Shown here piece by piece: positions 3,950-33,200 of a stretch of 34,556 nt of DNA. The position numbers and the translations under genes are program-made. Each line of letters begins with the position of its first letter. The first letter of the stretch is position 1. Source of the DNA: Dugesia japonica (lineage: Eukaryota); the NCBI GenBank assembly GCA_001938525.1, contig MQRL01642759.1, positions 1 through 34,556 on the forward strand. The letters run 5' to 3'. The notes beneath the pieces are model-generated. The model worked only from the letters and a program-made list of their open reading frames with translations. It was not told where the DNA came from and ran no database searches.

Positions 3950-3957
3950 TATATAAA
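3950..3957 (+). promoter_or_regulatory. Candidate TATA box of cathepsin L
   Basis: TATATAAA just before the N gap (3964-4008) that must hold the cathepsin start codon. The AT-rich background lowers specificity. Confidence 0.45.
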
Positions 3958-4009
3958 CCGAGCNNNNNNNNNNNNNNNNNNNNNNNNNNNNNNNNNNNNN
4001 NNNNNNNNT

Positions 4010-5231
4010 CTATTGTTAGTAGCAATTCAGGCTGTTCCACATTCATTCTCAATAGATTCTCAACTCAATGAAGAATGGGAAATCTACAAACTCAAATTCA
4101 ACAAGAAATATGATTCATTGAATGAATTGAGACGTAGAATAATTTGGGAAGAAAATCTTAAATATATTCAACAACACAATCTCGAATATGATCTTGGAAA
4201 ACATTCCTACAATCTCGGATTGAATAAATTTGCGGATTTGACAAATGAAGAGTTTAAATCTCGACTATTAGCAAACAAACGAATGGGAAGAAATGCGACT
4301 GGTTCTAATTTTTTAGCTCTACAAAATAATAAATATTTACCACCATCTGTCGATTGGAGAACGCAAGGATATGTAACACCTGTTAAAGATCAAGTAACAA
4401 AACTAATATTATTATTATTATTATTATTATTATTTATTATTATTATTATTATTATTCTTATTATTATTATTATCGATATTCGTTATAGGAGTTATGTGGA
4501 TCTTGCTGGGCATTTTCAGCTACAGGATCTTTAGAAGGTCAGTATAAACGTAAAACTGGTACACTTATCAGCTTTTCCGAACAACAATTAGTTGACTGTA
4601 GTCAAAGTTTTGGCAATAATGGATGTTATGGAGGCATGATGGAAGATGCTTTTAAGTATGTTACATCACGTGGTATTGAAAGAGAAAGAAGCTATCCATA
4701 CAAGGGAAATGTAGACATATTGTTTGAAAACAAATATTATTGATTAAGTTTGTAATGATAGACTGGAAACTGTTTATATGATAATTCAAAGGTAGTTGCT
4801 AAATGCTTGGGTTATGCTTATAATCATGAAAGAAATGAAATAATATTAGCCCAAGCTGTTGCTAGTATAGGACCAATTTCAGTTGGTATAGATGCCGGCC
4901 ATATATCATTTCAATTTTATCAGTTTGATCTTGATATTTTATATTGAAATCATTTAATTTTCATTCAGAAGTGGCATATATGATGAACCTAATTGTTCGG
5001 CAGAGGAACTTGACCATGGTGTTCTCATAGTGGGATATGGAAGCACAAATGATAGAAATTTCTGGATTGTTAAGAATAGGTTTGATATTTATTTCATTGA
5101 TCATATTTGATTGACAAACCTTTGGGTTTAGTTGGGGTTTGAGTTGGGGAATGGCTGGTTATATTGAAATGTCAAAAGATAAAAACAATCAATGCGGTAT
5201 CGCAACAGCAGCCAGTTATCCATTGTTCTAA
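4010..5231 (+). CDS. CTSL: Cathepsin L-like papain-family (C1A) cysteine protease; start codon hidden in N gap
   Basis: Exons <4010-4393, 4489-4710, 4762-4922, 4969-5079, 5132-5231; GT-AG introns of 95, 51, 46 and 52 bp give one open frame. I29 prodomain with ERFNIN-type motif ([19 protein letters not shown]) and GLNKFAD; mature LPPSVDWR; catalytic Q..CGSCW, LDHG, WIVKNSWG; ends [18 protein letters not shown] at 5279-5284. Confidence 0.96.
4407..4473. repeat. (ATT)n microsatellite in cathepsin L intron 1
   Basis: Run of TTA/ATT triplets between donor 4394 and acceptor 4488. Confidence 0.9.
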
Positions 5232-7453
5232 TAATTCTATTTAAATATTTTTATCGGTGCTTTGAGCACAATTTCATAAATAAATATAATTATTAAATGA
5301 ATTGCATAAATTTCTTATAATATTTAAAATGACCTTACCGATTTCTATTGTAATTTTAAACTTAAATTTTTAGACTTTTATAGACTGCAGAAAAATGAAT
5401 TTTTGCATTTCTGTTAAACTAATTTAAATGAACAACTTTAATTTACTAAACGTATTTTCACTTATAATTTTATTTTTGCTCCTGGTTCTTAATCAATTAA
5501 AACATAAACCAAATGATTCGTCCTATTTTATGAAACTCTCAGATTTTCTACATTTTACCTCTACAAATAAATTTCCATATCGTGTTTAAAACTTTGATTT
5601 CAATTTGTTTTAATACAATATCTGGCATTTTTATCTCACTATAAGTTTTTTTTATTAATAATATTTGATAAATATTTTGAAACAAAACCAAGTATTCATG
5701 CATAACTTCCGCAAGGAAATCATCAAATATGTCGATAATACAAAAGAGGAAAGAAATTTATAAAGAAAATTAATAGTAAAAAGCAACTTAAATGTATGGT
5801 TGGAGGAATTATAGAAAAAAATGTAATAAGAAATTAATAAGAAAAAAACGATAAACAAAAATAATAAATAGGGTTTTCCCTAGTTGGTTTTGATCGTTAG
5901 ACGGACTCGGGGGAACACTAACCCTCTAGTGTAGCCCTTTGAAGAATTTGATCTAGTTTCCAAGGCTGAATTTTCAAAATAAGATCAGTGATTCACAATA
6001 CGCGGTTTGAGTGCATGCCTATATTTCTTTAGTTTGGGACTAAGTAATTGGATTAAGTAGTAAGATATTACATTTTATTGATTATAGCACTAAGGTCAGC
6101 CATCAGTTCGTTGATGGCGCAGTCCGGTAGTATTAACGTCAAATAAAAACACGATGCCTTGTTTATCTCATGTTTGGCGCTTTCAGTGTTAGCTCGGTTC
6201 TGTTTGACTTGAATCTAGTGTTCGATATAATACAGTAAGAATTTAGTTTCCAAGTAAAGTCGCCGAATGTGATCTCGGACTTCGTCTATTCAAACCTTTC
6301 ACAAACGTTTCACCTTCTACAGGTACCACTCTTTGGATCTAATCCCTTATCATAGCCTGAACACACAGTGAGCTAGTTTTGACGAAACCTCTAGGTCATT
6401 GACGTTGCTTATCCAGTTATGGTCTATTCCTTGAAATTTTAAAATTAAAACGCATATCATAGATTAACAGTATTGTTGGTAAAATGTCATAAGTTGTATA
6501 TACATATCACTCTTGTGATTATCAACTACAAACTCTGCCCAAATTATTAGTATTTATCTATAGCTATCCAACAACTACAAGGAAATAAATATTTTCTTTA
6601 TTAATATACAACTCATTATTGTATTATACATATACATTATTTTTTAAGGTCATCTTAAGAATTCAGAAACGATTAGCTTAATATTATGTATTGTATTGCA
6701 CTCCATAACACCAGGAATAATCATAATCAAAACACTTTAACCGTTGATAACATGTTCATTATTATTTTAAAGTTCAATATTATAAAGAAAGAAATAATAA
6801 TTGGGAATTTAAACCAATAGAAATGTAGTAAAACAATTATAATTATACAATTAGTACTGTTTACCATAAATTTATATAACTGTTTATCTTTGTTAATTGT
6901 AAATAAAAAATAAATCTGAAATTAACAGTTGTAATTTCGTAAATAAATCATCTTTAGAAGAATTGCCTAACATGGAGACAGTGGTAAAATGTAAAGGATT
7001 TAGTAAAAAGATTATTTACAGATAAAGATTTTTCAGAGGAAAAATGATGGCAAAGATACTAATATATTGGGCAGATAACAAAAAGTTAAAGAAGAGGTTA
7101 CTGTGAAGAAACTATAGAATATGTAAGAAATTGAAGAAACAATGACATTGCTATATTGAATAGAGAAAATAAAGAGATCAAGTTGATGCAGTTAAAACTT
7201 ACGCCAGAGTTACAAGTTGAAATTGTCATAAATAAGCCATCATACATTGAGTAGAAATGTGGATCAAAGGAAGGAATAACCAAATATCGAATGCTGGCAA
7301 TGTCATAAGATCTGTCATAATAAACAAAATTATCCGACAGAAAAAGTGGTAGAGTATTAGATTTGTCATAAAAAAAAGAACATACGAGTATATGTCGAAT
7401 TTTTCAAGAGAAATGACCAACAAAATTCATTGGTTATGGAAAAGTATGTCTTT

Positions 7454-7846
7454 ACGTTTCTCCAAAATCTTTTATCTTAAAAAACAAGTTTTTCTGGAAT
7501 TTTTTTCTCAAGAACCTTTTTTACAAAAATATTTATTATCTAAAAACAGAAAATGAATTATTAAAATTTTCAAAATATTTTGTTCTTATAATAATTATAA
7601 TAAGTAGTGCTGTTAAATTTATTACAGAATAAAATATTAGGTTTAATTTTATCTTATCTCAAATTTTATTTATAAAATTACTCAATTTAATTATATTGTT
7701 TTTCAAATAAATGAAATTTTTTTATTATAAAATTTTAATATTTTGTATTTTTTTCTGGGAAATAAACAGTTTTTTGAAAAAAAAGATTCCAAAGAAAAGT
7801 GTTTCTTGAAAGAAAAGATTCTTGAGGAAAAAAATTGGAGAAACGT
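7454..7846. mobile_element. Foldback/MITE-like insertion nested in gypsy gag, bounded by ACGT
   Basis: Ends ACGTTTCTCCAA (7454-7465) and TTGGAGAAACGT (7835-7846), plus long imperfect inverted arms made of short internal repeats. Removing the insert and one ACGT restores the gag frame KYVFTCWNPEKVGH. Confidence 0.8.
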
Positions 7847-8801
7847 GTTGGAATCCTGAAAAAGTGGGCCACATTAAAGACTGTGTCAAAAGGTGAGGTG
7901 TAAACAATGTAGAAATGGTATGCATAGGGCAAAGAAGTGCTACCCTAATTTGAAAAGGAAAAAAACAACTGAAAACGTTTGGACTACTGGAGGTTTAGGA
8001 AACCAATATAATCGAATACATACGATTTCAGACGAAAACGACAATATAAACGATAGATATGAGAAAGCCTCTGAAAGTGATTTAGTAAAGTAGTACCAAA
8101 AAAAGACAGGACTCCATTAGTATAGGAATTAATCAGAGCCATCCATAGAATTGATTGACTGAATTAAGGGGCCAAAAAGTGGGATGATATCGGGAAAGTT
8201 ACAGATTCTTAAGGTTCTTAAAGAGAAAAAATTCTGTAGATGATAGAAATATATAATACATTAGAACAATTGAAGCAGAACAGAAAACAAATATGTTGTA
8301 CCTTAAATTTCAAGGCAGACCAAGTGTACGGGATCAATTCAAAGGATTAAAGTTGAAAGGCATTTTGATACAGGGCTTGAATTAACGTTAAGAGTTTGAT
8401 TTTTTTTCATAAATTACGAGAACTACATTTATAAAGAGCAACGAAAGATTATGTTGTGCAAACTATAGTACACTTAAAATTATTGTGAAAGTTAGAACTA
8501 GAGTGACGATTGATGAAGTTTGCAATGAGATTTTTTTCTTATTTGCAAAAATAGTGACACCATATGTGATAAATGGAATAGATATGAAGAAGACGTATCA
8601 GCTTGTACGGGAACTGGACAGTAAAACTAATGAAAAGTTGAAAATTACATATGTAATATTGGAGTAAAATTTTGAAGACAAATTAAAAAGGAAAAGCGAT
8701 TTACAAGGGCATTAAATAATAATTAAAAATGATCAACGGATATCGAAAATAATTGCAAATAAAGAAGATATTTTCATGACAGATAAATTTAATGTAGGAG
8801 C

Positions 8802-8948
8802 TATCTCAAATTTTATTTAGAAAATTAATCAATTTAATTATATTGTTTTTCAAATAAATGAAATTTTTTTATTATAAAATTTTAATATTTTGTATTTTTT
8901 CTGGGAAATAAACAGTTTTTTGAAAAAAAAGATTCTAAAGAAAAGTGT
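8802..8948 (+). repeat. Near-identical copy of an internal MITE segment (7656-7803) inserted in gypsy pol
   Basis: TATCTCAAATTTTATTTA...AAAGAAAAGTGT occurs at both sites with only a few differences. The copy interrupts DKFNVGA|LTKHKIVTSSEP. Confidence 0.85.
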
Positions 8949-11900
8949 CTGACGAAACACAAAATAGTCACAAGTAGTGAACCAATCAATGTAAAACCGC
9001 ATAGGCAACCAATGAAGTTAAACGCTAAAATTGAAGAAGCTATTCAAAACCTTTATGAGAATAATATTATCCGAAAATGCAACTCTCTATGAAATACTCC
9101 ATTGATTTGTGTTTGGAAAAATAAAATGAAGAACATAAGAATGCTTGAATTGCAGATAATTGAATGTCGTAACAACAAGACAAGCCTTTCTTATTCTTAA
9201 CATCGATTAAATATTGGACAGGTTAGATATTTCAGTTTAATAGTTTTGGAAGTAAAATTTAATATTCATACAATGAAACGTCAGTATTTATTTGTTGAAT
9301 TATTTAAGTCGACAAAACATTGCAAGTAAATTGTCTTGCATGGTTTAGTAGCGCTATTCGTGTTGAGGGAGAACACCCCGAAATAGAAAGTGAAGAGGAA
9401 ATCGATGACGAAGCCCAGATAAAAAATAAGATGCAGCTCTAGGAATAGATTAGTGACGACAAAGATTAAATTCGAAAGCAGTCTAAATACAAGGAGAAAT
9501 CATCAAAAAACAACTTATATCAAATTAGAACTAAGCGAGCAAAAATAGAAGGAAATTACAGAGACATAAGTAAAATACGAAGAAGAAACAAAGGGAATAA
9601 TAATATAACGAAAGAAGGAAACACTCTTTAAATATAGCTGATATTAAACACTTGGTATATATTCCAAGATTTTATGACATTTTTCATTGGCCTATCTTCG
9701 AATATTTCTTTAACTCTGATGTAAAAGGTTTATTATGTCACTATTATAAACAAAATGTCATCTCTTAAGCTTAATTCTTCGAATTTTCTTATTTTTCTTT
9801 GGCATTTTGTTCTGAAGATTTTAATTTACGACGAACAAAACATAATTAATTTTTTATTTGTCAATTTCTTATTCTTCATTATTTAAAATTAATTCTAGGT
9901 ACATTTGCCTATTTTCCTTAACTTCACTCAAATTATTTCTAATTGTAATTTATTTATTTGATTTTCTGCTTAAATAATGTTTTTTGGACTTATTGGCTGC
10001 TAGGTACTAACACCTTGGCATACGGCCTGATTCATTTTAATTGCGAAATTTTCTCCCACAAAAAAATAATAAATTAACAGAACAAATCCTAAAAATAATA
10101 CGAAAAATAAAATAATAAAACAGTTTTCAAAAACAAAAATATAAAACTATTTTTACATAAAAAATTTAATTAAAATTAGGATCAATAAAATCTGGAAACT
10201 CATTAAGATTATTCGAAATTAATGCCAAGTTAATAATCTCAAAAAAGAATTATATTCTCAAAAGTAATAATTTTATTAAGACAATACTAATTATAAAAGA
10301 TGTTTTTTATCCTTTTTAATACTTTCCTTTTTTATACAATATCATGCATCTTCATTTGAATTTATCTTTCGATTGACTCCATTCCATACACATTTGTTTA
10401 TCTTTATATTATCAGAAATAACAAATAAATATTTCTTTCTATCAAAAACGTAAATTTAACAATGATAATCAATATAATTTGCTTTTACGACTTCAATTTG
10501 AAGCTATAATTATTTACAATCAAAGTAAAGCTGTATTTATTGACAAGTAATTTTTGTTAGTACCAGTGAAGCATTGCTGGCCCTGTTATGAGTTCTGAAA
10601 TGGTTTAAATATTGTAATTGTTGTTTTAAGCAATGTTATTTTTCGCATTTGCTTTTATAGCAGCTCTTTCACTCGTGAATTATGATTGACTGTCTATGAT
10701 ACGATAGTTAATGCAGTCATCTCAGGCTAATAGTTACGCAGTTCAGGTACCTAAAAAACAATTATATTTTTAAATTCAATAAAACAAAAATGACTTTGTA
10801 TTCCATGTTACTTGTTTTAAAGAAGTAGACCATATTTCTCAAACTCACTGGGGTAGACATAAATTACACATCAAAATTATAAATTGTGAAAACCACACGT
10901 TTCTGAAATTCAAATTTAAAGAAATTGCAGAGGTGCACGGTCATGCATAACTATTGCAAGAATAATTCTTGAACTTGAGTATTGATTGCATGTAAGAGTT
11001 CATCAAATTAAAACCTTCGATCAAAATATTGTTTTGTATCTTTTCATTTCCTATTTATAATTATCCGAATTTTTGAATAGTCTTCTTCGGAAATTTAACA
11101 ATTTGACATGGCAGGCCGTGTGTTGGCCAGGCCTGCTCTATACGTTATATATTAAGATATAAGACACACTTATCACGTATCGACAATCAAAGAATTAGAT
11201 TTTAAATTCTAAAATTAAAGCAATTGTTGATTTATCTTTGCAAAATCNNNNNNNNNNNNNNNNNNNNNNNNNNNNNNNNNNNNNNNNNNNNNNNNNNNNN
11301 NNNAAATTTATCTTCTCCAAAATTGAATTTAGATATAATTGTGAATGAAATAGATTTCCTATATTCGATGAAGGTAATTGTACCTGATGGATGTTTGAGT
11401 AACACATTTTCCAGAAAATGAGACTATTAATATCTCGTTAAATTCTTGAAATGTTCCTTACGGGCTATTCTTAGTTCATAGGGAACTGAAATCATTAAAA
11501 TAGGCAAAAAATCTATCCACTTGTAAAAGTTCAACATAAAATAAGACAATAATCACCATAAATACAAACAATAATAGAATACCCAATACAAACTTAGTAG
11601 AGCAAGTTAAATTTTAGACAAAGGAATTATTGGAGATAACTTGGCAAACAACAAATTGATTTGACACTATTAGAACAAATATTTTAAACAAGAGGTCAGA
11701 AAGACAGTTTTCCTTTATAATTTTATAAATGACGGATATAATGTAGCCACCATCAATTTTATTTTCAAGAAGGACATAGTGATAAACATACTATTTTTTA
11801 AACAGAACTCAATTCTACTTCAACACAAACTTTTGTTACGTTGCTTTTATTTAACCCATTAACGTCCGCTGTAAATGCAATCTTGCGTGTCTTCTTATGA

Positions 11901-12556
11901 TTATTATGAAAGTAATTCATTTCAACACTATATATGATACTGATGAACTATGAAAACATGTAATATACCAGTAGTGCATAAATAAATGTCATTGTTTATA
12001 AATTGTGTTGTGAATAGTAAACAGGATTATTCAGATTTATATTGTTTTCACTGAGAAATAATATAAATTGGTGTTTTATTATTGCCTATAATTAAAACAA
12101 AATATAATAGTGGCGATATTTTTTTATGCTAGGTTATATTTTGTTTTATTTTTTGAATTTTTTTACATAAGCCATTTTGTTTAAATAAATAGTAATTAAC
12201 ATTATTTTCATTTATGGTTATTTAAAAATTATTTTACAATTACAATTATTGCTAGAATAATTGTTGGACATAACTATTGATGGTTTTATAGCTTTTATAT
12301 TAAATGAATTTGAAAATTAGTACGAATTAATTTTCTCTATTTGAATCACTTAATTGGTTATCTAATTTGTATTAAATCATGTAAAAACATGATTGAGAGT
12401 ATTTTAGTATTTTGAGAGAATCATTAGTGATAGTGACTAAAAATTCATTATCCAATTGTATGAGAACTGAGTTGTTAAAATGAGAAACTGGAACAGTGAA
12501 AAATAAAAATTGAATCAAAAATATTTCTTATTGGGTGAAAATATATCGACAAAGGA

Positions 12557-15234
12557 TCATGGAATGATACCACACCAACCGAGGACGTTAAAAGTGACAT
12601 TGAGGCGTTCCATAATAGTAGATGTATTCAACGACTGATCAATCGCGGTTTTGTCATACCAAGCAATCAAACAAATCTTTTTCAGGCTATTAATGAGTCG
12701 CAGTTTAGTTATCCATTGAAATGGACGCATTTCATCGGTGGATGCAAATATCCTGACAACATGAGTGGCATGATATATCCAAGGATCACCTAAGCAGCAT
12801 ATATTAATCGCAATGTCAATTTGTAAACAAACAACCAGAATAAAGAAGATAATCTCCACCCATCTTTTTACAAGAAATTGTGATGCAATAACCTCTTGAC
12901 CATAAATTATGAAATACGAAACATTTGACAATAATTTCTGGGGATAAATCATAGTTCAATCTATTATGCATCAAATTCTTTATGAAATCCAGATCTAATA
13001 ACTAGATTATCATTGACAATTATATTGATTCCAATACTTTCTCCTAATGTTTTTAATTCTGGAACATCGATTATTTCTTTTTCTGATTTTCGCAACCATT
13101 CAACAGGAGTTCCAGTCGGTAAATGCACAGAAATATTATCGATTTGCAGTTCTGGTGGAGAAGAAGAACCACTTATTAAATCTATATAAATGCATAAATA
13201 GAACTTGGATATGATCAATATTTTTCTTGGAATCAATTTATGTAAGAGTTTCTAATCTCAAATGAGTTAGCAACTTCATAGTTTACGATTACCAATTAGT
13301 TAACAAATTTTTTATGATAACATGTGCCAGAATTATCGTAAATGCAACTATGAACCTTAAGTTTTATAAATTAAAAATAGAGATTTAAGGAACTTTATTT
13401 TATTTTTATTATTTTTCCACAGCACCCTAAATCAAAATATCTCCACATTATTATGCAATTTTTAAATTTATTGGTTAATTATATCTTAATACATTTGTTT
13501 CAATAAAGGAATTTAGAAAGTCTTTTATTATTAATTTACTTTCAATTAATTATTTTTTAATTAATTTTTAAAAGAAAAAAGAAAAATCAACGCTAATATA
13601 TATTTTCCATCAAGAAGCAATTCGAATAACAATTATCTTAATTTTTAATTCTTTTTCACAAATTATACATATGCACTAGAATAAATTTAAACGAAAAATT
13701 ATTTTATTGATTTTTCAAGAAATTTAAGAAAATTAACGGATATAGAAAATTTAATTAAAATTCATTAATTTGTTTTATGTATATTTATGGGGGAAAATAT
13801 TTAGAAAATATGAGTTATTTATTTCAATAGAATTACTACTATTTCCTTTATGGAAGCGTCCATAAAGTATGTCACATTCCAGGTGTGGGAGAATTGCTAA
13901 GAAAATGTGACAGTTTACGTTAATAATTTATGATGAAACAATCATTTACATACCTCAATCTATTCACAATAATTAATCTTTTCTATTTTTGACATAAAAT
14001 TTTAGCTTTTGAATGTTCACCAAAAAAAACTTTATTGGAAGAACGAAGAGTTTATTGATTTATTTTTGTAATATTATTGGAAACATAAATGAATGAAATA
14101 TTTTTTTAAAAATCATTTTTGAACCCGAAGAAATTATTTTTGAAAACAATTTCGCAAAAACCAAACATTTTGTCCACAATTGATTATGGAGAAAGTTTAA
14201 TGAGGATAGGTGAAAAAATATGCTTTGATAAAAAAAATTACAAAACACGAAATTCGGTGTATTTTTTAAAACCAACGTCACCAGTTAGATGATTTAATGG
14301 TGAAGAGTGTTATTATTATATTAAATTTTAATTAGTTGTTCATTTTTAAACCATTTTTTTAGTTCGAAAATGTAACGTACTTAACGAAAGGTTTTCAAGA
14401 TTTGTGAGGTAAAAATATTCAAAAATAGCGTGACACCTCTATTTCCATATTAAAATTTCAAAATGAAATAAATTTGGAACGTAATCAAATCGATGTGCTT
14501 CCAGTAATTAATATTTCATTTCATTTGTAAGTTAGATTAAATCAATTAAAGATGTCAATCATTTTACTCTCGTTCCGAGTATTGGAATCTTTTCCTGGTC
14601 GGGAAAACTTTAAATTATCATTCTCAAAGTTAAGCTTAATTTGTGTTATAAAACCTTGGCCAAGTATAATAAAATATCCCTTACATCCCTAATTTTCCCT
14701 TTACTACGAGAGACGAGAACATGAGTTTCTATCCTTAAATTACACTTATTTTGTTGTAAAGCTAATACTCAATTTGATATAGTGAATCTAGCTGCACTTT
14801 ATATGTATACATTTTGCTCAGTCTCTACCATCTAAAATTACCTGCTTTTCGTTTCATTGCAAACTTTTGATTGTTAGCAACATTGTCAAAGTGCAAATTA
14901 CTTTTTCTCAATTTATCTTCAATTATAATTTTTGACTAATAGATAAATAAATAAGCTGACAACATTATGACAGTTACCATTTCTGAACAGTTTTCCACTA
15001 GAGCTGCTTTGTATTCTGCAATACTTTCGACTGTAGATTCACAAATCGATTCTGATATCAGGCTAGTACTGATAGATAGAGTGATTTTGGAAGATTTTTC
15101 TTTCAATAATACTACTAATTCTTCCAATCCAAGTTTTAATGGGAGACCCTTGAATGTTGTTTTGTGAGGAGCTCTAGCGACTGATCCAATATATTTTCCG
15201 AAAATACGGCATTCATCTCGTAGAACTTGGACAC
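12557..15234 (-). CDS. TSEN34: tRNA-splicing endonuclease catalytic subunit Sen34 (first exon not resolved)
   Basis: Exons 15234-14978, 14935-14842, 13181-13038, 12994-12836, 12789-12557; GT-AG introns of 42, 1660, 43 and 46 bp, phases consistent. N-terminus VQVLRDECRIFGKYIGSVARAPHKTTFKGLPLKLGLEE and C-terminus VFHNLWSRGY...KMGGDYLLYSGDPWIYHATHVV...LRLINSLKKICLIAW match Sen34; the Y-H-K catalytic residues are present. Confidence 0.9.
13851..14395. mobile_element. Degenerate MITE in the TSEN34 long intron
   Basis: Left end GGAAGCGTCCATAAAGTATGTCAC with a degenerate inverted partner GTAACGTACTTAACGAAAGG near 14371-14390. Confidence 0.35.
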
Positions 15235-16454
15235 CTTTACAATAATAATCAGTAAAACAATACCATTATTATGAGGCTTATATAAAAATTAGAATGAGAC
15301 CATCAACAACATTGACATAAATAAAAACACAATATTCAATACAAATAAACAAATAATACAAATAAAAGTTGGCAAGAATCAAGAATAAAAATTATCGACA
15401 AAACGATAAATGATAAAAATTTCTATTTGACAAAATTCTACCAAGTAAATTAAACTGTTGACTATAATAAATAGAAATCGAATTTGACAGCTCTCTCCTA
15501 TAAAGATATGTTACTCAATAAACAAAAATTACTGTCAGAAGTGAAATGAAGCCGTATATTTTAGGATCGTCGGCACAACTCGATAAAGACATACTTTCTT
15601 TAATAATACTAATATTTAATTTGAGGTCAACTGTTTTTAGGGTAATCGGATTAGTTGTAATAAAATGAAATAATACCAGAGAGGTATGGCTCCATAATAT
15701 GGCTCCAATTAATAACAGAAAATATATAAATTATTGATATTGTTTATATTATTGATTGTGCACTTGGAAAACTTTAACAAATAATTGGGTAGAATAATTA
15801 ACAAAATTTTCACATAAAATCATTTCTAAATGCATTCTTTTATCAATTGTTTTATCAATCAATATATACTGTGTAACAAATCAATGTTTCAAATAATAAG
15901 ATATTCAATTGTTCGCTCTTGAAATAGGAGAACAAAATCTCAATAGGAAACTGTATAATGGAACAAAATACAATTATTTAATGGTTTCAAATAGTCTGAA
16001 AATATTCTAATAAGTATTTTCTTCTCAATTGAAAAAAATTCTCAATGAAGAGATAAGAAAGAAAATGAGAACAATGATCATTATTAATCAAATTTTATGT
16101 GTTAATTATGTTGAATGGTGAATTTCGTAAAAATATTAAATTTTTCATTGATAATAATAGCACGTTGAAACATTTTATAAATAATTCTCCACTACAATCT
16201 AACTATTTGAGATGTCGTACATCTAATATAGTTATTGATAACATGTNTTACAATTATACATAGGTATCATATAGATTAATTTCTATNAATAATTGGGATA
16301 CGATCAAATAATAATGAAAACACTTTTGAAAATCATCGTAATATCGTGCGAAAAGAAACGATTAAATTCATCCAGAATAAAAATAAATCAATAAAAAATG
16401 TTGCTAATAATAATAAAAATCAATTAAAATACACGAAATAATTATGTCAATTAA

Positions 16455-17120
16455 AATACTAATAATAATTATTAATAATAATCAATACTAATAATCAATA
16501 CTAATAATTATTAATAATAATCAATACTGATAATAACTAATAATAATCAATACTAATAATAATTAATAATAATCAATACTAATAATAATTAATAATAATC
16601 AATACTAATAANNNNNNNNNNNNNNNNNNNNNNNNNNNNNNNNNNNNNNNNNNNNNNNNNNNNNNNNNNNNNNNNNNNNNNNNNNNNNNNNNNNNNACTA
16701 ATAATAATTAATAATAATCAATACTAATAATAATTAATAATAATCAATACTAATAATAATTAATAATAATAATCAATACTACTAATAATAATAATCAATA
16801 CTAATAATAATAAATACTAATAATAATAATAATCAATACTAATAATAATAATCAATACTAATAATAATTAATAATAATCACTAATAATACTACTCAATAA
16901 TAATGATGAATCATAAGAATCAAGAATAATAATAATCTATTATAATCAATAATAATAGTCGATAATAATACTAATAAAAATAATCATAGTACTAATCAAT
17001 GATATGAATCAATAATGATANTCGATATTAACAGTAATTATTAAAAATCAATAATAAAAATAATAATAATTACTAAAATCAATAATAATAATCGATATTA
17101 ACAACCAATAATAATAATAA
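16455..17120. repeat. AAT-based complex tandem repeat (units such as AATAATAATTAATAATAATCAATACT) spanning an N gap
   Basis: Tandem units visible on both sides of gap 16612-16696, degenerating toward 17120. Confidence 0.9.
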
Positions 17121-17356
17121 AAAAGTGCACTAACAATTTGGATCCCAAATCAAAATATCCGCAGAATGATTAATATTAACCTCGATTCGATCACCCATTA
17201 TCTGAAAACTGGTCAAAATGATAAGCAACAGAAATTTAAATAATCATCAATGATAATAGTAATATTTAAACAAAATATAAAAATAAAAATGTATGATAAT
17301 AAAAATGAAAAGTATTGATAGAAGAAACATTATAAATATATTAGAATGAAATAATA

Positions 17357-20300
17357 TCAGCAAATCCATCCAATATGAGAATTGTTATTGTATTCATGAG
17401 AATATGGCTGGTCCAATGTCAAATCGAGAGGACAAGCACTGTTGAGGAAACTTGTAAAATTCATAGTTTGAGAATTGTGGTTAGAATTCCAAAATGTGTG
17501 ATAACTTAGATCAATAGGCAGTTGTGAATCGTACGCATAATAACCATTTGATTGGTGTTGAATTGTAAGATTAATAGGATATTGGTATTGCAGATTATCA
17601 TCTACGGTTTGATATGACGGAACGTATGACAAATGTGAACACGGATTTATGAAAACCTTTGGTCGAAATGTTGATGTCAAATCAAGAGCTCTTTCGGGAA
17701 AACTGAAATTTTGCTGAAAAGATAGAGAAACAGATAAATGTATTATTGATAATGAAATAGAACAATTGGGATTTCATTAGAAAATATTATGGCAGAGTTA
17801 TAAATTTATGAAAGAAAGAATTATTATATTTCTCTTCACTACTCTTCAATCAACAGATAATTCAAGATATGATTTGTCAACACAGATTAATGCAAATGGA
17901 GAAAAATTGAGAATTTATAATTTTCTATCTTGTCATTTTATTAACGTTTTCTTTCTTTCAGTTAAAAGCTTCGATCAAAATGTTGTCTTTTTTATTTTAA
18001 TATTTGTGTAGTAATTCGAATTTTCAAATTTTATCTTGTTCAGGAATTAATTTTTGGATTTATTCAATATTTTTTATTTCTTCTGTTCCTGAAGAAGACT
18101 ATTGTCGAAAATTTGAACTTTTTTACAAATAAATTATTTTTTGATCCCAGCTTTTTCTTATTTTAATGAAATATTCAATATTTATTATTGTAATGGAAAA
18201 ATTTTTGAAAATAATTCATTTTATTGAATTTTAATTGATAAAATTATTTAACTATAAATTACATTGATTTTAGGTTTAATTAGAAATTCTTCATGTTTCT
18301 TCTTGCTGAGTAGAAATGTAACATGTTTTTAGTGTTTTCCATGTTTTATGATGTTGTTGTTCTGATTTTTGAAGACTTCGCTATTTTTGTTGCTTGAGAT
18401 CTTCCTTAATTCTTGTTCGGATGGGTCTGCATGTTTCCCCTGTATATGTATCTATATATAAGGAAAATGTTATTTTATAAGTGAGATTTTTCTTATTGAA
18501 TTTCTACCATCACAAAAATGTAATTGTGCGTCCAAATGAGCTTGCGGTTTTAATATTATTCTTTAATTGTGCTTTAGTTTAAATTTTTTATTACGTTTGA
18601 AAATGTAGCCCAATCATGCGAAACATAATAAATTGTCTAAATCAATGGTTTCTAAACTTGATGTTACTACGCCACCGTTAATAATATTTAATCATTTGGC
18701 ACCTCCTCTTCCCTTCCTCCATTTGATAACATAATAAAAACACCAAAAAATTTTACTGCTAAAAAATTTACGAAACTAATGGAAAACAAAACCAAATAAT
18801 AACGATATTTTATTAGTGTTTTTTAATGAGATGGATGTGCTTGTCTATTAGCATATAGTTTATCAAATCATTTGGAACATTGCTCACTGTGACTAGTATT
18901 CGCGTCTCTCTAGGGAGACTGGAAATCGCTGGTCTAAATGAACAGAAATAGTATAGAAAAACGATTCTATTGTGGTAAAAAAAATGGTAGATAGTGGCGC
19001 ACTATACCTCTTTTCTTCTGGGGTATGGCTTTTGAATCGAAACCGGTACTATAGGATAGGAAATTAAAAAGTAAGATAGAAATGTCTCATGAAGTTGTAT
19101 CGTAAAATATTTCCTTCCTAATGAAAATAGAGGTTTATTAATTTTTCTAAAAATGGTTCAAGGTCAAGTTACCGAAATGCTATGATGATAATTTTGGTAT
19201 CGTTAGATGCGCAATACGATAACAGGAATTATGGTGAGTATATTTGTAGTATTAATTGGTAAGAAGTTATTCAAAATTCAAAACAGGCCTAAAGCCGCCA
19301 TTTTGAAATTTTTAAAGTTGAACCTTATATTATTCGATAGAAAATTATAAAATACAATAGGAATGTCTCATGACGACCTTGTATCGTCAAATTTTTCCTT
19401 CCCTATGAAAATCGAGGTGTTAAAAATTTCCAAAAATAGGTAAAGGTCAAGTTACAGAAGTGCTATGATGATAATATTGGTATCTTTAGATGAGCAATAC
19501 TATGAAAAATATTATGGTGTGATTATATTTACAATTTAAAGAAAGAGTAAAAAGTTATTAAAAATTTAAGACATACAGCCGCCATTTATAAAGTTGAACC
19601 TTTTATTATTCGATAGAAAATTCCAACTTACCTATAGATTGCCTATAGATTTGCTAATGTAAAGTGATTAATTTCAACGCAATTCTAAAATGAACCCCAT
19701 GATACTTGGCCAAAATAAAGGTTCTACAACCGCGGACATTTTTAATTGCAGAATAATCAAAGTCACCACATTTAGCTTGTCCACTGTACAAATTTCCTTG
19801 TACCATTGACTTTCAATCCAACATACATCATTTTTAACTCTCCACAATTCTAGACATTCGATTGAGATCATCTTAATATATAAAGTCCAATTAGGGAGGA
19901 TTCTTCTGGTATTTTCTTTAGTGGTGTTGTAAATTTTCACATACAGTAAAAAACAAAAAAATTAATCTTCCTTTCACGGAGGAAGCCATAATAACATTAG
20001 TTAACTAAAATTAATATTAAAACTTAATGTAAAAATAATTCATTCATTGATTTATAATAAAATCGATTTTATTATAAACATTTAAATTTCGTCAAAGAAA
20101 ATTGATTATATAAAAATAGAATTATATATTGGTTTATTTAGTAAATTATCTTTAATTTAAAATAATTAATTCAATTATAATTAGTTAGCCATAATAATAA
20201 TGAAATTCCCATTTGATATGAATAGAATTATTAAATGATGTTTTATTACTTGATTATCTTTCGAATTATTAATTCGACAATCTATCGCNNNNNNNNNNNN

Positions 20301-20693
20301 NNNNNNNNNNNNNNNNNNNNNNNNNNNNNNNNNNNNNNNNNNNNNNNNNNNNNNNNNNNNNNNNNNNNNNNNNNNNNNNNNNNNNNNNNNNNNNNNNNNN
20401 NNNNNNNNNNNNNNNNNNNNNNNNNNNNNNNNNNNNNNNNNNNNNNNNNNNNNNNNNNNNNNNNNNNNNNNNNNNNNNNNNNNNNNNNNNNNTAGATATA
20501 CTAGTTCTTTCAAATCTTTGCTATGCTCAAAAAGTCTTTTGTGTTTCCGTAGACTGCTGGGATCTTTATACACACGAGGACAATTAGGACATTGAAATAC
20601 TAAATCTTTATTATTATGTTTTCTCATACAAAGACTTTTGCCAGATCGATTTTTAAAACATTTATTACATTCAGGGCACTTATATTTTGACAT
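17357..20693 (-). CDS. Small two-zinc-finger protein (~182 aa) with four PxDLS-like CtBP-binding motifs; putative transcriptional repressor
   Basis: Exon 1 20693-20502 (ATG, MSKYKCPEC...CMRKH, FQCPNC...HKRLFEH, donor CTA|GTATAT, phase 0). Exon 2 17713-17357 (acceptor TTTCAG|CAA, phase 0) encodes ALDLT, PINLT, PIDLS and PLDLT, ending IGWIC*. The joining is inferred from matching phase; extra exons could lie in gap 20289-20492. Confidence 0.7.
18013..18048 (-). ncRNA. Minimal type-I hammerhead ribozyme motif, core-mutated copy
   Basis: Minus strand AATTC CTGAACA AGATAAAATTT GAA AATT C GAATT: 5-bp stem I, G8->C in the core; family tail TTTTGATCGAAGCTTTT at 17964-17980. Confidence 0.6.
18085..18118 (+). 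ncRNA. Minimal type-I hammerhead ribozyme motif (intact core; Penelope-type)
   Basis: GTTC CTGAAGA A GAC TATT GTC GAA AATT T GAAC: stem I GTTC/GAAC, CUGANGA and GAAA cores, 3-bp stem II, palindromic AATT stem III, UH cleavage site. Confidence 0.8.
18643..18931 (-). mobile_element. hAT (Buster/Charlie-type) deletion derivative
   Basis: 8-bp TSD GTCTAAAT at 18635-18642 and 18932-18939; ends CAATGGTTTCTAAAC...GGAAATCGCTG. Minus strand keeps the transposase C-terminus FDKLYANRQAHPSH*. Confidence 0.88.
19024..19990. mobile_element. Non-autonomous element with an internal ~280 bp tandem duplication; Helentron/HINE-like architecture
   Basis: Short inverted ends TATGGCTT (19024-19031) and AAGCCATA (19983-19990); 3' stem-loop CTTCC..GGAAG (19967-19985); diverged direct repeats 19081-19346 and 19362-19622. 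The superfamily is inferred. Confidence 0.5.
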
Positions 20694-22749
20694 AGATTAT
20701 TACTGAATGATATTGAATTATAGCAATAAAGTTAATTTATATTTATTATTTGTTAGATTACATTTATAATATTACAAGTTAGAATTATAAAATTCTGATG
20801 TGTGATTAAAAGATAATAAAATTAGTAATTAAATATTTACAAATTTTAAATATTAAAATGAATATTTAAACACTAAAATAGACTATTTTATCAATTATTC
20901 AAAAATTCAAGTAGTTTTCAAATTTCTCTAATTATTTACAATTTGCGAAAAAAAGACAGTTTTCAATAAAATAAAAAATTAATCAAATTTGTTGTTTAAC
21001 ATTTTTTTATTTATTAATGAAATTTTGAAAAATGAATAAAATTTCAAAAATCTCGATTTCCAATAATAATTGCTAAGTTGGTTTGGCACAGACTGAGCAG
21101 ATTTTACTAGTTTTTGAATATTCAGTGCTGTTTTCAATAAAATTTTCTATTGCAATTGATACCATTATTTTCAAATATAGAAACTTGAAACTCTGTTTTT
21201 ACTCAGGAATAGTTTTCACCAAAAATATCTGTTGCTTTTATTGTAAAAATATACTTGAGCAATTAAATCTGCTGTAAGATATAGTTTTGGAAATTAATTA
21301 AATGAATTAACTTTATAATCAAACAAATAATCAGAGTAGATTTGATTTTAATATTTGTTATTTAGTTCGTTTTTCTAACTAAAGTCTTTTTTCTCTCTAT
21401 TTTAATTTACAGAATTTAGCATCTTATCTATGAACATTTGCTTTACAATTACTTCTGTTTCATAGAAAACACAATTATATCTAACTCGATACACTACAAT
21501 ACAAGAAAGTTTTATATTATAACTTTAATTCTTAATTTTTTAAAAATTTACATGGGTTGACAATTTGTTTGGTTCTATAGATCTTAGATTTTTTGGGTAT
21601 ATTTTGCAGACTTTCTCGTTTCGTTGATTCGTTGACGTATGGAAATCCATAAGAATTGCAAACATTTAGCGGTTGTCCTACCTTCATACTCTAAATAACT
21701 TTGGTAAATCTGATCACTTCAGACGGTAAAAAATTTGTATTTATTAGGTTAAGTTATCCGATTTTATGGAAAAATTTCGTTTTCCGTTTATATTGTACTG
21801 TTAAGGTTATTAATTAGAGCTTTTTGAGTTCTAGTTCAACAAAAATATTTTTTTATTAAAACTTTTTTTTGTAAAACCGCTATTAAATAAAAGCGATTTA
21901 TTAATCAAGAAAAGTTTGTTTTTCTTACATTATTTCTGGAGAAGCTTGATGATTTGAAACATTTAGTAATTTTAAACTGCAGGTGTTTTTATGGTGCCGA
22001 TCAATAAATAGTTATTACGTTGCAGAATTTTCTTGCTTTTCCTATAAAATGCATGAAAAACATAACCATAAAGATATTTCAAAGAAACAACCCTCATACC
22101 ATTTAAATAATTAATATACTTTTAAAAATTACTTGAAATAAATATAACAGAACACTTAATGTAAACAGTAGTTTGCTCCTATGAAATAAAGCTATTTATC
22201 ATTACTCCTTGCAAATCATGCTTCTTCCGTTCATTTTGTAATTACAAGTAATACAAAGAAGCCACAAACATTCAATGGTTGTCATAATTTGTCGTAACTG
22301 TATTATATTCTCGAGTCTTTGAAAATTTCCTTTCAATTTTGGATCATTTTATTAGAATATAAGCTTATCTTGAATTTCTGATAATGTTTGGATGAAACAT
22401 CCAGTTGAGGTGAAGCAAGACCAAGGCTGTCACTAACTATAAGGAATTGGAAGGAAATATAGAATCAAAAATGCATCGAAGACGATTAAAATGTTAATTA
22501 GTCCACCAGAAAGGTCGAATAACGTTGTCAACGACCCTATGTTTTGATTAACATTATCCACATTATTATTCCAGGATCACATGCTCATGATTCCGATGAC
22601 ATGATGAATAAAATTACATAATCCTGTTTGCTACTCATCCGTATTTACTAGCAAGGAGTGTCGTCGCGGATAATTATTCCTTTTTAGACGGGTCCGGAGA
22701 ACTGAACCCTGAATTTAGTAATTATCCATAATTGTTTATCCTTTAGTTA

Positions 22750-22932
22750 ATGCCGGCAGTATTGCAAAAAACTCTTCGCTTAATAAAGAGGCAACGTCAG
22801 ACCACTTGCCTGAAGCAGTTAATAGCCCACCGTTTAACAAATGGTAAAATTGAGCACCCTGAAGAAACCGATCTCCAGTGTTTCGCCGAAATGTTCCCAC
22901 TAGAGCATAAAATGGACTTAGATGAGGAATAA
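22750..22932 (+). CDS. Hypothetical 60 aa protein (basic N-terminus, acidic C-terminus), island ORF1
   Basis: ATG directly after the acceptor-like TTTATCCTTTAG; GC-elevated; no recognisable domain. Confidence 0.35.
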   Translation: MPAVLQKTLRLIKRQRQTTCLKQLIAHRLTNGKIEHPEETDLQCFAEMFPLEHKMDLDEE

Positions 22933-23079
22933 TGGCAGGTTTGAACTCGTGTCATTTTGTTGTGACTACCTTAATATTAATTTTTTCGTTTGTTTGTTTA
23001 ATGAGCTGTAGTTTTATTTTTTTTATTAATCCATGTTAATTAAAGTATCTAGTTTATTGAATTATTAAAATAACTAGGA

Positions 23080-23432
23080 ATGGAATCCATATGGGAACGG
23101 ATAGTAGATCGGAGAACTCGCTGGATCATTTTTAGGCGACATCATAACCCGCATAACCGGGATGCCAGAATATTAGTCGATAACTCAAATTTACCACCAG
23201 TGGAAGCCGCCGTAACTCGCATTCAGAATTTTGGCAAGAGGCCAATGGAATGGGCCAGTACGCAATCACACAACTGCGTTCCAGTATCAACCTCCGGCTC
23301 CACCCCCAGTCGCGCAGGCCTTCATTAATAATTTACTCTGGGGCGTTAGGAAACCATCTGGGGTGGATGATGCCGAGAATACCGCTCTGGCCACGGACCC
23401 TGCGATTAGTCCGCAGTGACTCTTTTGTTTGA
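23080..23432 (+). pseudogene. Island ORF2, probably frameshifted hypothetical protein
   Basis: MESIWERIVDRR...AAVTRIQNF. Adding one T to the T-run at 23229-23232 continues as WQEANGMGQYAITQL...LVRSDSFV* (23432), followed by AATAAA at 23439-23444. Confidence 0.35.
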
Positions 23433-23653
23433 TGTAGCAATAAATACATGTCTTTACGTATTATTATTTCGTTTTGTTTCCTTCAGGGTTATACTAAAGG
23501 AAAGTTTTTACTATGTCATAATTACATTTTGCTGTCATAAAATTGGAAATGGTTTCGCGTATTTCCGTAACTTTGATGATAATATATTTAATAAACCTTT
23601 ATTCTTTTGTAGTGCATTCCTCCCTGAACCGCCCATCGGCTCCCTATAAAAAA

Positions 23654-23980
23654 ATGAGAAGCACCAGTGAGGACCAAGAAATGACTTAGGACCTGTACCG
23701 CCTCACGAAGCGTCGTTGGGAGGCGGAGATGGCCACAGCAAATAGTAAAGTACACCGATACAAGAAAAAATGTATCGTATTTAGAAAGGAAGCCAAAGCC
23801 TCCCATATGCAAGAACGGGTGTGGAAGAAACTAGTCGAATCTTTTGTCGAGATCATCTTGTCCAGCCACGACCACGAAAATAAACTGGTCACCGATGTTC
23901 TACTCCTTAAGGTGAAGTTTAACCTCGAACCCCTCATGATCGATAAAAGTACCCAAACTAAATCGATATCACATCGCTAG
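23654..23980 (+). pseudogene. Island ORF3, helical protein with LC8-binding DKSTQT motif and one in-frame stop
   Basis: MRSTSEDQEMT*DLYRLTKRRWEAEMATANSK...LEPLMIDKSTQTKSISHR*. The frame is open upstream to an acceptor TTCTTTTGTAG at 23612. An 83 aa version from ATG 23729 is intact. Confidence 0.4.
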
Positions 23981-24164
23981 ACTTTTTCTTTATCTGTAAA
24001 TGCATGATTAGTTAGTAAATCTTTACCTTTGTGTGTCTTATTTTGATTTAGTTAGGGGAGTTTCGTCCTATATAAAATAAAGTAATTATTTCTTTTCATT
24101 AATACTTCCTTATCTAGTGCCACATCTCACATTTCCGAACAGCTTACGACGGTGTCAATAGATA

Positions 24165-30200: not shown

Positions 30201-33200
30201 TGATGAATACCGTGGGTGATAGAGTTTACAATTCGAACCCCAGTAGTTTGAGCAACATGTGGTCAAGCGTTATCTAGCAAGCTATCTCATCATGTCGTCT
30301 AATTGGTTGCAGTATACATCTGCTGTAATGAATAATACCATCACTGGACAACCAAACAGATACCATTAGTTTCTTTTCGTAAATATTCAGCTTTGTGTTT
30401 CATTTTTATCCAACTATTGACATGAATGCCTACGATTATCGTAACGAATCCATTTTTCGTAAAAGACAACCTTCGAAACTATTTCTTTTCTGCTGGTCGC
30501 TTATTTCACACAGAACTCATCGGACTAACTTTTTGACCGTGTCAATTTGTTTTAAATAAAAACTTTGAAATTTTCCGTCAATTTGAGAAGTATCTCTTCC
30601 ACTAAAGCTTTCAAATCATCATTATTAACATTCGCCTGAATTTCATCGACAATATTGTTGCCAAACACTTCATTTATATTTCGAACTGTTTACTTTGCAT
30701 TTGTTCCACGATGGAACTCCGACATTTCATATTTAATGACATAATATATGCGCATTTTTGCATATGTAAGGAATAAAGAGACTTAATCGATATTCATTAA
30801 AAAATATTAGGTTGGTGAGTTTATTTCAAGACATAAAACATTTTTATTTTAATGAGCAATATATATAAATAGATATATATTGCCCTTTGTTGCACACTTC
30901 TTACGTCAAGGTTTCAAATAGGTTTACGATTTCATAAGTTAAGAAATTCGATAAATTTTGAATCGAAGAAGTCATCAAGTAAATTTTGAAGGAAATCTCA
31001 ATAAGCGAATTCTGAAGGTTCTGGAAGAGGTGATAATACGATTGAGCAAAATCAGGAAAGTAAGGGAGATGTGAGAGAATCTTACAATGAAATTTCATAA
31101 AAGCTTCGATCAAAATAAAATGTATTTTTATAAATATTATTCAAATTTTCGACAATTGTCTTCTTCAGGAATTTGATGACTTTTTGATAGATATTTAAAC
31201 GATAATAGATCTTTCTTACAAAATTCATTATATTTTATCAAAATGTTATTGGTTTATTTATGAATATAATTTTATTTAATTACAATTATCATAAATCAAT
31301 ATAATTTTATTCAATTACAATTATCATAAATCAATATAATTTTATTCAATTACAATTATCATAAATTAATATATAATTTTATTCAATTACAATTATCATA
31401 AATTAATATAATTTTATTCAATTATAATTATCATAAATTAATATATAATTTTGTTCAATTACAAATATCATAAATGAATATAATTTTATTTAATTACAAT
31501 TATCATAAATCAATATAATTTTATTCAATTACAATTATCATAAATCAATATAATTTTATTCAATTACAATTATAATAAATCAATAAAATTTTATTTAATT
31601 ACAATTATAATAAATCAATAAAATTTTATTTAATTACAATTATAAAAAATCAATATAATTTTATTCAATTACAATTGTCATAAATTATTATAATTTTATT
31701 CAATTACAATTATAATAAATCAATATAATTTTATTCAATTACAATTATCATAAATCAATATAATTTTATTCAATTACAATTATCATAAATTATTATAATT
31801 TTATTCAATTACAATTATAATAAATCAATATAATTTTATTCAATTACAATTATAATAAATCAATATAATTTTATTCAATTAAAATTATAATAAATCAATA
31901 TAATTTTATTCAATTACAATTATCATAAATTAATATAATTTTATTCAATTACAATTATAATAAATTAATAAAATTTTATTTAATTACAATTATAATAAAT
32001 TAATATAATTTTATTCAATTACAATTATAATAAATCAATATAATTTTATTCAATTACAATTATTATAAATCAATATAATTTTATTCAATTACAATTNNNN
32101 NNNNNNNNNNNNNNNNNNNNNNNNNNNNNNNNNNNNNNNNNNNNNNNNNNNNNNNNNNNNNNNNNNNNNNNNNNNNNNNNNNNNNNNNNNNNNNNNNNNN
32201 NNNNNNNNNNNNNNNNNNNNNNNNNNNNNNNNNNNNNNNNNNNNNNNNNNNNNNNNNNNNNNNNNNNNNNNNNNNNNNNNNNNNNNNNNNNNNNNNNNNN
32301 NNNNNNNNNNNNNNNNNNNNNNNNNNNNNNNNNNNNNNNNNNNNNNNNNNNNNNNNNNNNNNNNNNNNNNNNNNNNNNNNNNNNNNNNNNNNNNNNNNNN
32401 NNNNNNNNNNNNNNNNNNNNNNNNNNNNNNNNNNNNNNNNNNNNNNNNNNNNNNNNNNNNNNNNNNNNNNNNNNNNNNNNNNNNNNNNNNNNNNNNNNNN
32501 NNNNNNNNNNNNNNNNNNNNNNNNNNNNNNNNNNNNNNNNNNNNNNNNNNNNNNNNNNNNNNNNNNNNNNNNNNNNNNNNNNNNAAATTAATAAAATTTT
32601 ATTTAATTACAATTATAATAAATTAATATAATTTTATTCAATTACAATTATAATAAATTAATATAATTTTATTCAATTACAATTATAATAAATTAATATA
32701 TAATTTTATTCAATTTAATTTTTATTATTATTGAATCTTATTATTTTTTTTAAATTTTTAAAAACTATTTATAAAAAATTATTAATTATAATAACTAATT
32801 ATAATAATTAATTATAATATCAAAATCCAATTAATAATTAAGCATTTAAGAGATTTTTCGATTTAATAAAAAAAAATTTGAGATTTAATTTAAAATAAAA
32901 ATTTATAATTAAAATAAACCAATAAAATTTTGATAAAATATAAAGAATTTTGTAACAATGTTCTAATATCGATTAAATCTATCAAAGAGTCACCGTCATA
33001 CTCCTGAAGATAATAGGAATAATATCCATAAAAATTAATTTTAATTTGATCGAAGCTATTATTTTCTTTATTTGAATGAAATAATCCCAAATGCGACCAA
33101 TGGTTATTCATACAATAATTGTAATTATAAATCTCTTACAAGGACGCTCCAGAATTTCAGTTTTTCGTTTGGTATGCAGTGTGCCGTGTAAGAGAATAAT

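Follow-up and report, generated by a model that had tools for sequence, protein, structure and literature searches.

The window, that is, the whole 34,556-nucleotide stretch of Dugesia japonica contig MQRL01642759.1 analysed here, was found to carry all eight hammerhead-like sites located in it by a preliminary description. The complete module attributed to them (CTGANGA, A, stem II, GAA, tetramer and H) is intact in the copies at 18085(+) and 31139(-), whereas the core is not intact in the other six. Each of the eight copies is followed by the downstream box in some form, the box behind the 25295 copy being too diverged for a 3-mismatch scan and read by eye; this box, however, is the end of the pseudo-LTR (pLTR) and not the Penelope tail. 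The true tail is an optional extension of ~62 nt that encodes the ORF start (long tail; short end where it is missing). An Rfam scan of the window, which had been proposed as a check, returned four weak matches, all unrelated, and no hammerhead family up to E 10. A covariance model trained on 58 copies, all outside the window, recognized six of the eight copies at E < 0.01 (55.2, 54.5, 54.4, 40.3, 35.2, and 20.1 bits), while two fell short of that level, the 33000 copy at E 0.17 and the 25295 copy at E 0.62; as hammerheads these two are marginal, and it is homology of their flanks that links them to the family.

The first copy (10949..11098, minus strand; flanking homology, covariance model E 0.0024) is decayed and truncated. 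Its hammerhead remnant (11059-11098) has lost U4 and G12, and its pLTR-end box (11011-11024) runs into a decayed long tail. Two family fragments had been overlooked, at 12219-12304(-) and 28759-28883(+); the former is a tail-only piece lacking a hammerhead, with 85.6% identity over 90 nt to locus L088 (E 9e-25). At 18254..18593 on the minus strand lie the decayed linker and GIY-YIG end of a Penelope-like ORF with frameshifts and stops (tblastn with P0001, E 1.3e-12; 67–70% to natural EN-bearing copies by blastn), so that the earlier remark that no GIY-YIG ORF was recognized nearby was not confirmed. The same EN-bearing copy has its pLTR end at 17963..18060(-) (covariance model E 6.8e-8), in which a hammerhead remnant with a changed G8 (18010-18051) is followed by the box and a short end. 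Nested inside this older copy in the opposite orientation is a 99-bp copy of a sister subfamily (18073..18171, plus strand; covariance model E 6.2e-14) with an intact core, a short end and a predicted cut after 18114. It is flanked by a 12-bp direct repeat (18061-18072 and 18172-18183), a clear target duplication of a kind that occurs in 0.25% of random window pairs.

Three further insertions in the window are inverted or compound. One of them (25226..25432; covariance model E 0.62) is an old inverted pair from a third subfamily; it contains a minus-strand hammerhead remnant without GAA (25288-25332) and a plus arm that starts inside the motif, and it resembles L018, L020, and L191 as judged by eye. 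The compound insertion at 28375..28883 consists of a minus arm with a short end (motif 28408-28448, A6 changed), a plus arm (motif 28604-28644, G12 changed), an ATT-rich spacer, and a second box with a long tail encoding the ORF-start peptide (28759-28883, plus strand); a candidate 7-bp target duplication (28368-28374 and 28884-28890) would be met by chance in 7%. The inverted insertion at 31088..33133, delimited by flanking homology and the covariance model, has a minus arm with an intact core (31135-31176), a predicted cut after 31143 and a short end, and a plus arm, recognized by flanking homology, in which the motif is deleted and the tail is long (32774-33133); its candidate 8-bp target duplication (31080-31087 and 33134-33141) has a chance level of 3%. 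Inside it, a partly N 35-bp minisatellite (31263..32715) has grown from the element's 3′ untranslated sequence; the repeat unit can be aligned with the 3′ UTR in the natural copy L077.

In the 854-Mb genome, the hammerhead module gave 10,232 exact matches and, summed over all families fitting the loose pattern, at least 19,138 looser ones, compared with 0 and 90 in the reversed controls, which bears out both the genome-wide enrichment and the great abundance suggested for the family. The suggested density of one copy per 4 kb applies locally: contigs taken by number contained three model matches at E < 0.01 in 139,587 bases, one of them a training copy, or about one per 47 kb. The copies have the minimal type-I core, with the extra base 9b, the G10.1-C11.1 pair, a palindromic stem III (61 of 68 pattern-selected cores) and NUH, where H was U, C, or A in 63 of the 68. 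Covariation of stems I, II, and III, also part of the preliminary description, was recovered in 55 distinct copies, in which 85.1% of cells were paired vs. 76.6% after shuffling (0 of 500 shuffles); it reflects subfamily-level changes with few independent events, and the search pattern had fixed part of the core. Stem I was A-U in 34 and G-C in 7 of these copies, the inner pair of stem III was UA in 30 and AU in 21, and two-sided changes in stem II were seen in 2 and 3 copies.

A parent Penelope-like element with reverse transcriptase (RT) and GIY-YIG endonuclease (EN) domains is present in the genome, and partly in the window. A distinct non-autonomous family without a parent, as first envisaged, is not supported; the short copies are very probably 5′-truncated ends of this parent, with scattered 5′ ends. 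Among 25 fetched GIY-YIG loci, 8 (L033, L034, L038, L042, L044, L045, L051, and L054) carry the motif or the box on the same strand, 110–670 nt past the GIY-YIG match; the remaining 17 are interrupted by a contig end, come from a second family, or have neither feature. RT is followed by EN in the natural copies L078, L146, L151, L159, and L160, and RT, EN, and motif occur together in L146, L151, and L160. The pLTR was found behind the ORF in the latter three and, on different contigs, before it in L096, L097, L110, and L145, where the box or tail directly precedes the RT frame. The order is RT, GIY-YIG, AT-rich UTR, minimal hammerhead, box, and first in-frame ATG. No complete pLTR-ORF-pLTR copy was present on a single contig among the fetched loci of this assembly of 648,594 contigs, and we infer the full parent from overlapping natural copies. 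Every parent frame seen in the D. japonica genome is broken, while P0001 is an intact 843-aa relative, 76% identical, whose N-terminus is the peptide that the long tail encodes. One RT fragment alone gave 4,945 first-look candidates, 150 of which were scored. The contig depth of run X20, a run of unrecorded kind whose depth is not a copy number, was ~1.0 million over pLTR bins vs. 3–33 thousand over ORF 5′ bins and climbed toward the 3′ part of the ORF. None of the 15 joints listed, out of 137 on L097, was an RNA-supported intron joint, and the pLTR there reaches only ~25 nt upstream of the motif.

The Pfam GIY-YIG scores exceed the cut-off, and P0001 and the genome copies share two Cys (CxxC) between GIY and YIG and downstream His residues (CCHH motif). 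A Cys linker of the form C-x3-C-x-C-x5-C is present in P0001–P0003 and P0005, the canonical CX2-5CxxC linker in the relatives P0004, P0006, and P0007, and the linker is absent from the aligned rows P0008–P0013. PNL2_SM, which is listed after the Nematis rows in Figure S2 of PMC8557442 (Neptune/Nematis-type EN+ elements), likewise has its GIY-YIG at the C-terminus, two Cys in the stretch from GIY to YIG, a downstream His, and a Cys-rich CxC...C linker just before GIY-YIG (CLC..C, compared with CIC..C in P0001). This comparison was made by eye on ~50 printed residues, and a placement in that clade is tentative. The P0001 linker is not the canonical CX2-5CxxC. The Penelope and Poseidon proteins, as described, have no such linker.

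The same element anatomy has been described (PMC8557442, PMC3846280), and minimal hammerheads are known from the pLTRs of metazoan Penelope-like elements (Cervera and de la Pena, 2014, PMC4209133). In line with the preliminary description, the copies fit the consensus reported there: CUGANGA, an extra base before G10.1, a G-C closing pair, GAAA, palindrome and UH, with a short helix I, U-rich and AU-rich flanks, and mostly single dispersed motifs. The 3-bp helix II lies at the short end of the published list, as in the C. briggsae example, while the count of at least 19,138 matches over all loose-pattern families compares with ~2,000–9,000 in the genomes quoted. Opposite-strand pairs 100–700 bp apart have also been reported (PMC4209133). 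A search of the accessible journal literature, most hits being judged from their listing, showed no paper devoted to this family or to twin priming in Penelope elements.

The 5′ ends of 34 copies clear of contig ends (41 examined) spread over 0–396 nt upstream of the core. The 3′ ends were bimodal at two points ~62 nt apart: in yardstick positions, 46 of 78 fell at 16–40 and 25 at 76–100, while 2 extended into the ORF and 5 ended elsewhere. Head-to-head pairs 5–35 nt apart numbered 756 in the genome, compared with 0 in the reversed control and ~3 expected from motif density by simple arithmetic. The tail was confined to one arm in all nine pairs with both arms readable (15 fetched; by eye), and target duplications of six genomic inverted pairs averaged 5.7 vs. 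5.0 in mismatched pairs, a weak excess. In one subfamily, 209 of 2,356 copies fold back at the stem-III palindrome, which requires an uncut template, as the junction needs template 5 nt beyond the predicted cut. The recurring fold-backs differ in the tail-bearing arm and in their flanks. In six of nine readable fold-backs the inverted arm has tail sequence missing from the main arm, which a simple fold-back of one cDNA cannot give. Arm differences in the nine did not discriminate (5.0 within copies vs. 5.7 and 4.6 between copies).

Traces of cleavage were also sought. Counts under stepwise 5′ extension (3,471, 2,356, 1,707, and 1,381) correspond to a retention of 0.925, 0.938, and 0.932 per specified base, with no extra loss at the cut, although subfamily variation blurs this measure. 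At most one of 30 informative copies (31 read) starts exactly at the predicted cut. Three raw RNA runs gave 84, 3,182, and 2,674 reads on L097 in both orientations, library strandedness not being on record; in none did read ends pile up at the predicted cut, and oligo-dT/cDNA libraries miss short or circular products. When the eight window copies were folded singly, only 18085(+) took stems I and II as its lowest-energy fold, and none was clearly better than its shuffles (z -0.1 to -1.5). Co-folding of two 18085 cores did not give a paired stem III, the 4-nt palindromes alone having positive duplex energy; co-folding models miss tertiary contacts, which makes this a weak test. Overall, the genomic traces point to uncut templates.

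Taken together, the short copies are very probably 5′-truncated, protein-less pLTR ends of an EN-bearing Penelope-like retrotransposon, likely made by target-primed reverse transcription. Reverse transcription would begin at either of two places shortly past the hammerhead motif and would mostly end within a few hundred bases; the two 3′ end points presumably mark where it starts, by analogy with measurements on the lizard element PAc. That the short copies instead form a self-standing, SINE- or retrozyme-like family derived from pLTRs and mobilized in trans is improbable. They do far outnumber ORF-bearing copies, one junction recurs 209 times, RNA reads contain family sequence, pLTRs can act in trans (PMC3846280), and retrozymes have been argued to come from pLTRs (10.64898/2026.07.22.740005). 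Against this, their 5′ end is not fixed, the recurring fold-backs vary as described above, the window has no tandem hammerhead monomers, and all their parts also occur in ORF-bearing copies. Metazoan non-LTR retrozymes (PMC7229834) resemble them in the type-I hammerhead, the non-coding nature of short copies and low GC, but consist of 150–450 bp monomers in tandem, have canonical hammerheads and form circular RNAs; no such tandem array occurs in the window, whose copies are truncations, either scattered or inverted, that bear minimal motifs, and a retrozyme reading was rejected. The truncated pLTR ends could still also be re-transposed in trans. The inverted pairs might alternatively be terminal inverted repeats of a MITE or fold-back DNA transposon with an incidental hammerhead likeness, given that the window has four inverted arrangements and that two of these show candidate 7–8 bp duplications. 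This idea was rejected and is almost certainly wrong: the arms are unequal with a one-sided tail, spacer lengths vary, RT and GIY-YIG frames adjoin the sequence without a break, and a nested insertion accounts for one of the four arrangements.

With the short copies read as truncated Penelope-like ends, an inverted unit would be a single insertion event in which two antisense strands were united by microhomology. PAc, a Poseidon element of Anolis (PMC11167929), and Adineta Pen2a (PMC3846280) similarly show a tail of ORF-start sequence between two end points, inverted pLTRs in which one arm bears the tail, insertion into their own pLTR at AT-rich sites, and RNA ends absent at the hammerhead cut. 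They differ in that the motif here lies entirely upstream of the first in-frame ATG (~55–60 nt) and the tail is ~62 nt, against a printed range of 30–40 bp. Given sense RNA, purified PAc extends both strands of the target, starting at two sites, and yields one-sided tails without antisense RNA (PMC11167929). We tentatively suggest, as a possibility with the odds against it, that one insertion event uses both start sites, one per target strand, and that microhomology unites the cDNAs, the stem-III palindrome being a hot spot; the ribozyme would then act on integration while uncut, as a structural stop or a site of annealing, and not as a nuclease. For the inverted units, an origin from an antisense RNA template that primes itself, as has been suggested for the Penelope elements of rotifers (PMC3846280), is likewise conceivable but doubtful: it fits the reads in both orientations on L097 and allows either tail polarity, while the PAc reaction tells against it. 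Any activity of the ribozyme would be weak and would take place in the multimeric RNA of the parent with the help of protein, and the dispersed copies, mostly with broken cores, may be passengers.

Minimal hammerheads, truncation, inverted arms and one-sided tails have all been described before in Penelope-like elements. The value of the present family lies in a large natural data set on the role of the hammerhead in the Penelope cycle and on the origin of inverted pLTRs, and the copy ends predict that the two start sites are separated by ~62 nt, that the palindrome is a hot spot for junctions, and that no ends fall at the cut. If the two-cDNA reading is true, thousands of genomic micro-insertions would be a record of the Penelope insertion reaction.

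In the 854 Mb animal genome assembly (648,594 contigs), of which the window is one entire contig of 34.6 kb with 27% GC, the tight core pattern of the hammerhead motif gave 10,232 exact matches vs. 0 for the reversed control, the looser core pattern gave 19,138 vs. 90, and the box at the end of the pseudo-LTR (pLTR) gave 16,262 vs. 2 for its control. The motif is thus enriched genome-wide with either core pattern, and all eight hammerhead sites claimed in the window were found present. Covariation between copies, as proposed in the preliminary description, was also observed: in 55 distinct copies, all from outside the window, 85.1% of the stem cells were paired vs. 76.6% in shuffles (0 of 500) and 46% at most in slid controls. 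Both sides changed in stem I (A-U 34, G-C 7) and in the stem III palindrome (UA 30, AU 21), whereas stem II showed such two-sided changes only rarely, with few independent events overall because the copies are kin and were selected by the core pattern. With a model built from those outside-window copies only, six of the eight window sites were recovered at E<0.01, the other two lying above it, and the motif was denser in the window than in contigs taken by number (3 matches at E<0.01 per 139,587 bases). The full module held for 18085(+) and 31139(-) only, the other six copies being without the whole core, and an Rfam scan of the window gave no hammerhead match; the initial observation was confirmed in part. 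The motif fits the min-HHR consensus as presented in PMC4209133.

No Penelope RT or GIY-YIG had been recognised nearby. Using P0001, an intact 843-aa database relative with 76% identity and the same N-terminal peptide as the element's ORF start, as query, a decayed GIY-YIG end was found at 18254–18593(-) (E 1.3e-12), and the ORF-start peptide was weakly matched at 28826–28888(+) (E 0.30). The GIY-YIG genome search yielded 94 matches among 150 candidates scored, and in 8 of the 25 loci fetched, the endonuclease match was followed by the motif or box in the same orientation. An RT fragment from a locus with both GIY-YIG and motif gave 4,945 first-look candidates in the genome. The parent Penelope element was traced through the order RT, endonuclease, and motif within single natural copies (L146, L151, and L160), and box or tail stood immediately before the RT frame in L096, L097, L110, and L145; in the last locus, the frame opens at an ATG just after the box and continues for 249 codons, with three in-frame ATGs as possible starts. 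This order and the GIY-YIG remnant in the window indicate that the module is the pLTR of an RT plus GIY-YIG Penelope-like element. The original interpretation was supported in part. No complete copy on a single contig was found among the loci examined, the parent being pieced from partial natural copies, and no intact parent frame was found in this genome, every frame seen being broken. Short AT-rich matches to the element UTR at window 13523–13573, 26348–26414, and 10593–10622 (-) (E about 1e-5 to 1e-6) may be fragments or chance.

End positions were measured against one natural copy, copies close to a contig end or N being excluded and 22 tail-selected copies tallied separately. Of 78 3′ ends, 46 fell at positions 16–40, peaking at the ATG, 25 at positions 76–100, two continued into the ORF, and five lay elsewhere. 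The optional end piece, ~62 nt of ORF start, is what PMC8557442 and PMC3846280 call the tail of Penelope elements, with a stated length of 30–40 bp; a tail spanning two RT start sites is shown in PMC11167929. What had been described as a shared tail is actually the box, ~25 nt upstream of the short end. The 5′ ends lay 0–396 nt upstream of the core, with a median of ~40 (34 of 41 copies free of contig-end limit; AT-rich alignments are noisy). At L076:4280–4700, another locus of this genome, tandem ~95-nt repeats that consist of the box plus the short end of the pLTR, and lack a hammerhead, lie beside an inverted tail.

In total, 756 head-to-head pairs spaced 5–35 nt were found in the genome, and the tail was on a single arm in all nine pairs with both arms readable (15 fetched; by eye). 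The window units 28375–28883 and 31088–33133 obey this rule, and carry candidate target duplications of 7 and 8 bp (chance 7% and 3%), respectively. Unlike these units, the 18013/18085 pair consists of a 99-bp sister-subfamily copy nested in an endonuclease-bearing copy and flanked by 12-bp direct repeats. The 35-bp minisatellite (31263–32715; at least 27 units, partly N) inside the inverted insertion 31088–33133 derives from the element's 3′ UTR. A zf-UBP and coiled-coil exon at 27306–28097 (-), ~280 nt from the 28375 insertion, resembles BRAP/IMP, the zf-UBP domain coming from the domain search. The window also contains cathepsin L-like protease exons at 3944–4743 (+) (propeptide I29 from the domain search, the remainder by eye), an open reading frame, broken by N, at 20181–20696 (-) in which two motifs look like C2H2 zinc fingers (by eye), and long degenerate TAA/AAT-rich tandem arrays at 16400–17120 and 34468–34549. 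Five contigs taken by number (L060, L062, L065, L068, and L070) carry related long frames, which we take to resemble polymerase B and other genes of Polinton/Maverick-type large DNA transposons.

Stepwise counts showed no extra copy loss across the predicted cut. Among 31 copies picked by the sequence immediately behind the cut, at most one started at it, two started 7 nt upstream, and five folded back at the stem III palindrome. The exact fold-back junction (209 occurrences among 2,356) contains 5 nt from upstream of the cut, which suggests that the template was uncut. In the nine fully readable among 20 fold-back units, the tail was scored by script on the inverted arm in six, on the main arm in one, and on neither in two; on inspection by eye, the inverted arm of one of these two bears a degenerate tail. 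A single cDNA cannot be the template for an inverted arm that exceeds the main arm in length, and units of this kind would need a pair of antisense strands, or an antisense RNA template as proposed in PMC3846280. Three RNA runs, whose libraries are blind to short or circular products, covered L097 in both orientations and showed no read-end pile-up; loose read ends gathered where the long tail stops (149, 86, and 4 reads), which is what transcription reading through dispersed copies should give. The genomic and RNA results at the cut site agree with PMC11167929, which describes that cleavage required protein and insertion did not require cleavage, and with the low dimer activity of minimal hammerheads given in PMC4209133.

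The element's endonuclease has a CCHH motif and a Cys-rich linker, the latter of the Neptune/Nematis type but shortened, as in PNL2_SM, which is a likeness of features rather than a clade assignment. Two Penelope-like families were encountered, and by eye they look like PNL2_SM and Perere_Smed of PMC8557442 Fig. S2, so that the host is probably a planarian-like flatworm. The second family (L037, L042, L084, L198, and loose-pattern matches) has a minimal hammerhead of its own, in which stem II is longer and the palindrome measures 6 nt, its endonuclease being the one that resembles Perere_Smed; further families with a long stem are also among the loose-pattern matches listed. Retrozymes, in contrast, are described as tandem monomers with canonical motifs (PMC7229834; 10.64898/2026.07.22.740005), an arrangement that was not seen in the window. 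The element belongs to an already known kind, and what remains of interest is that its tail is longer, that its copies are so numerous, and that the palindrome is a hot spot for junctions.
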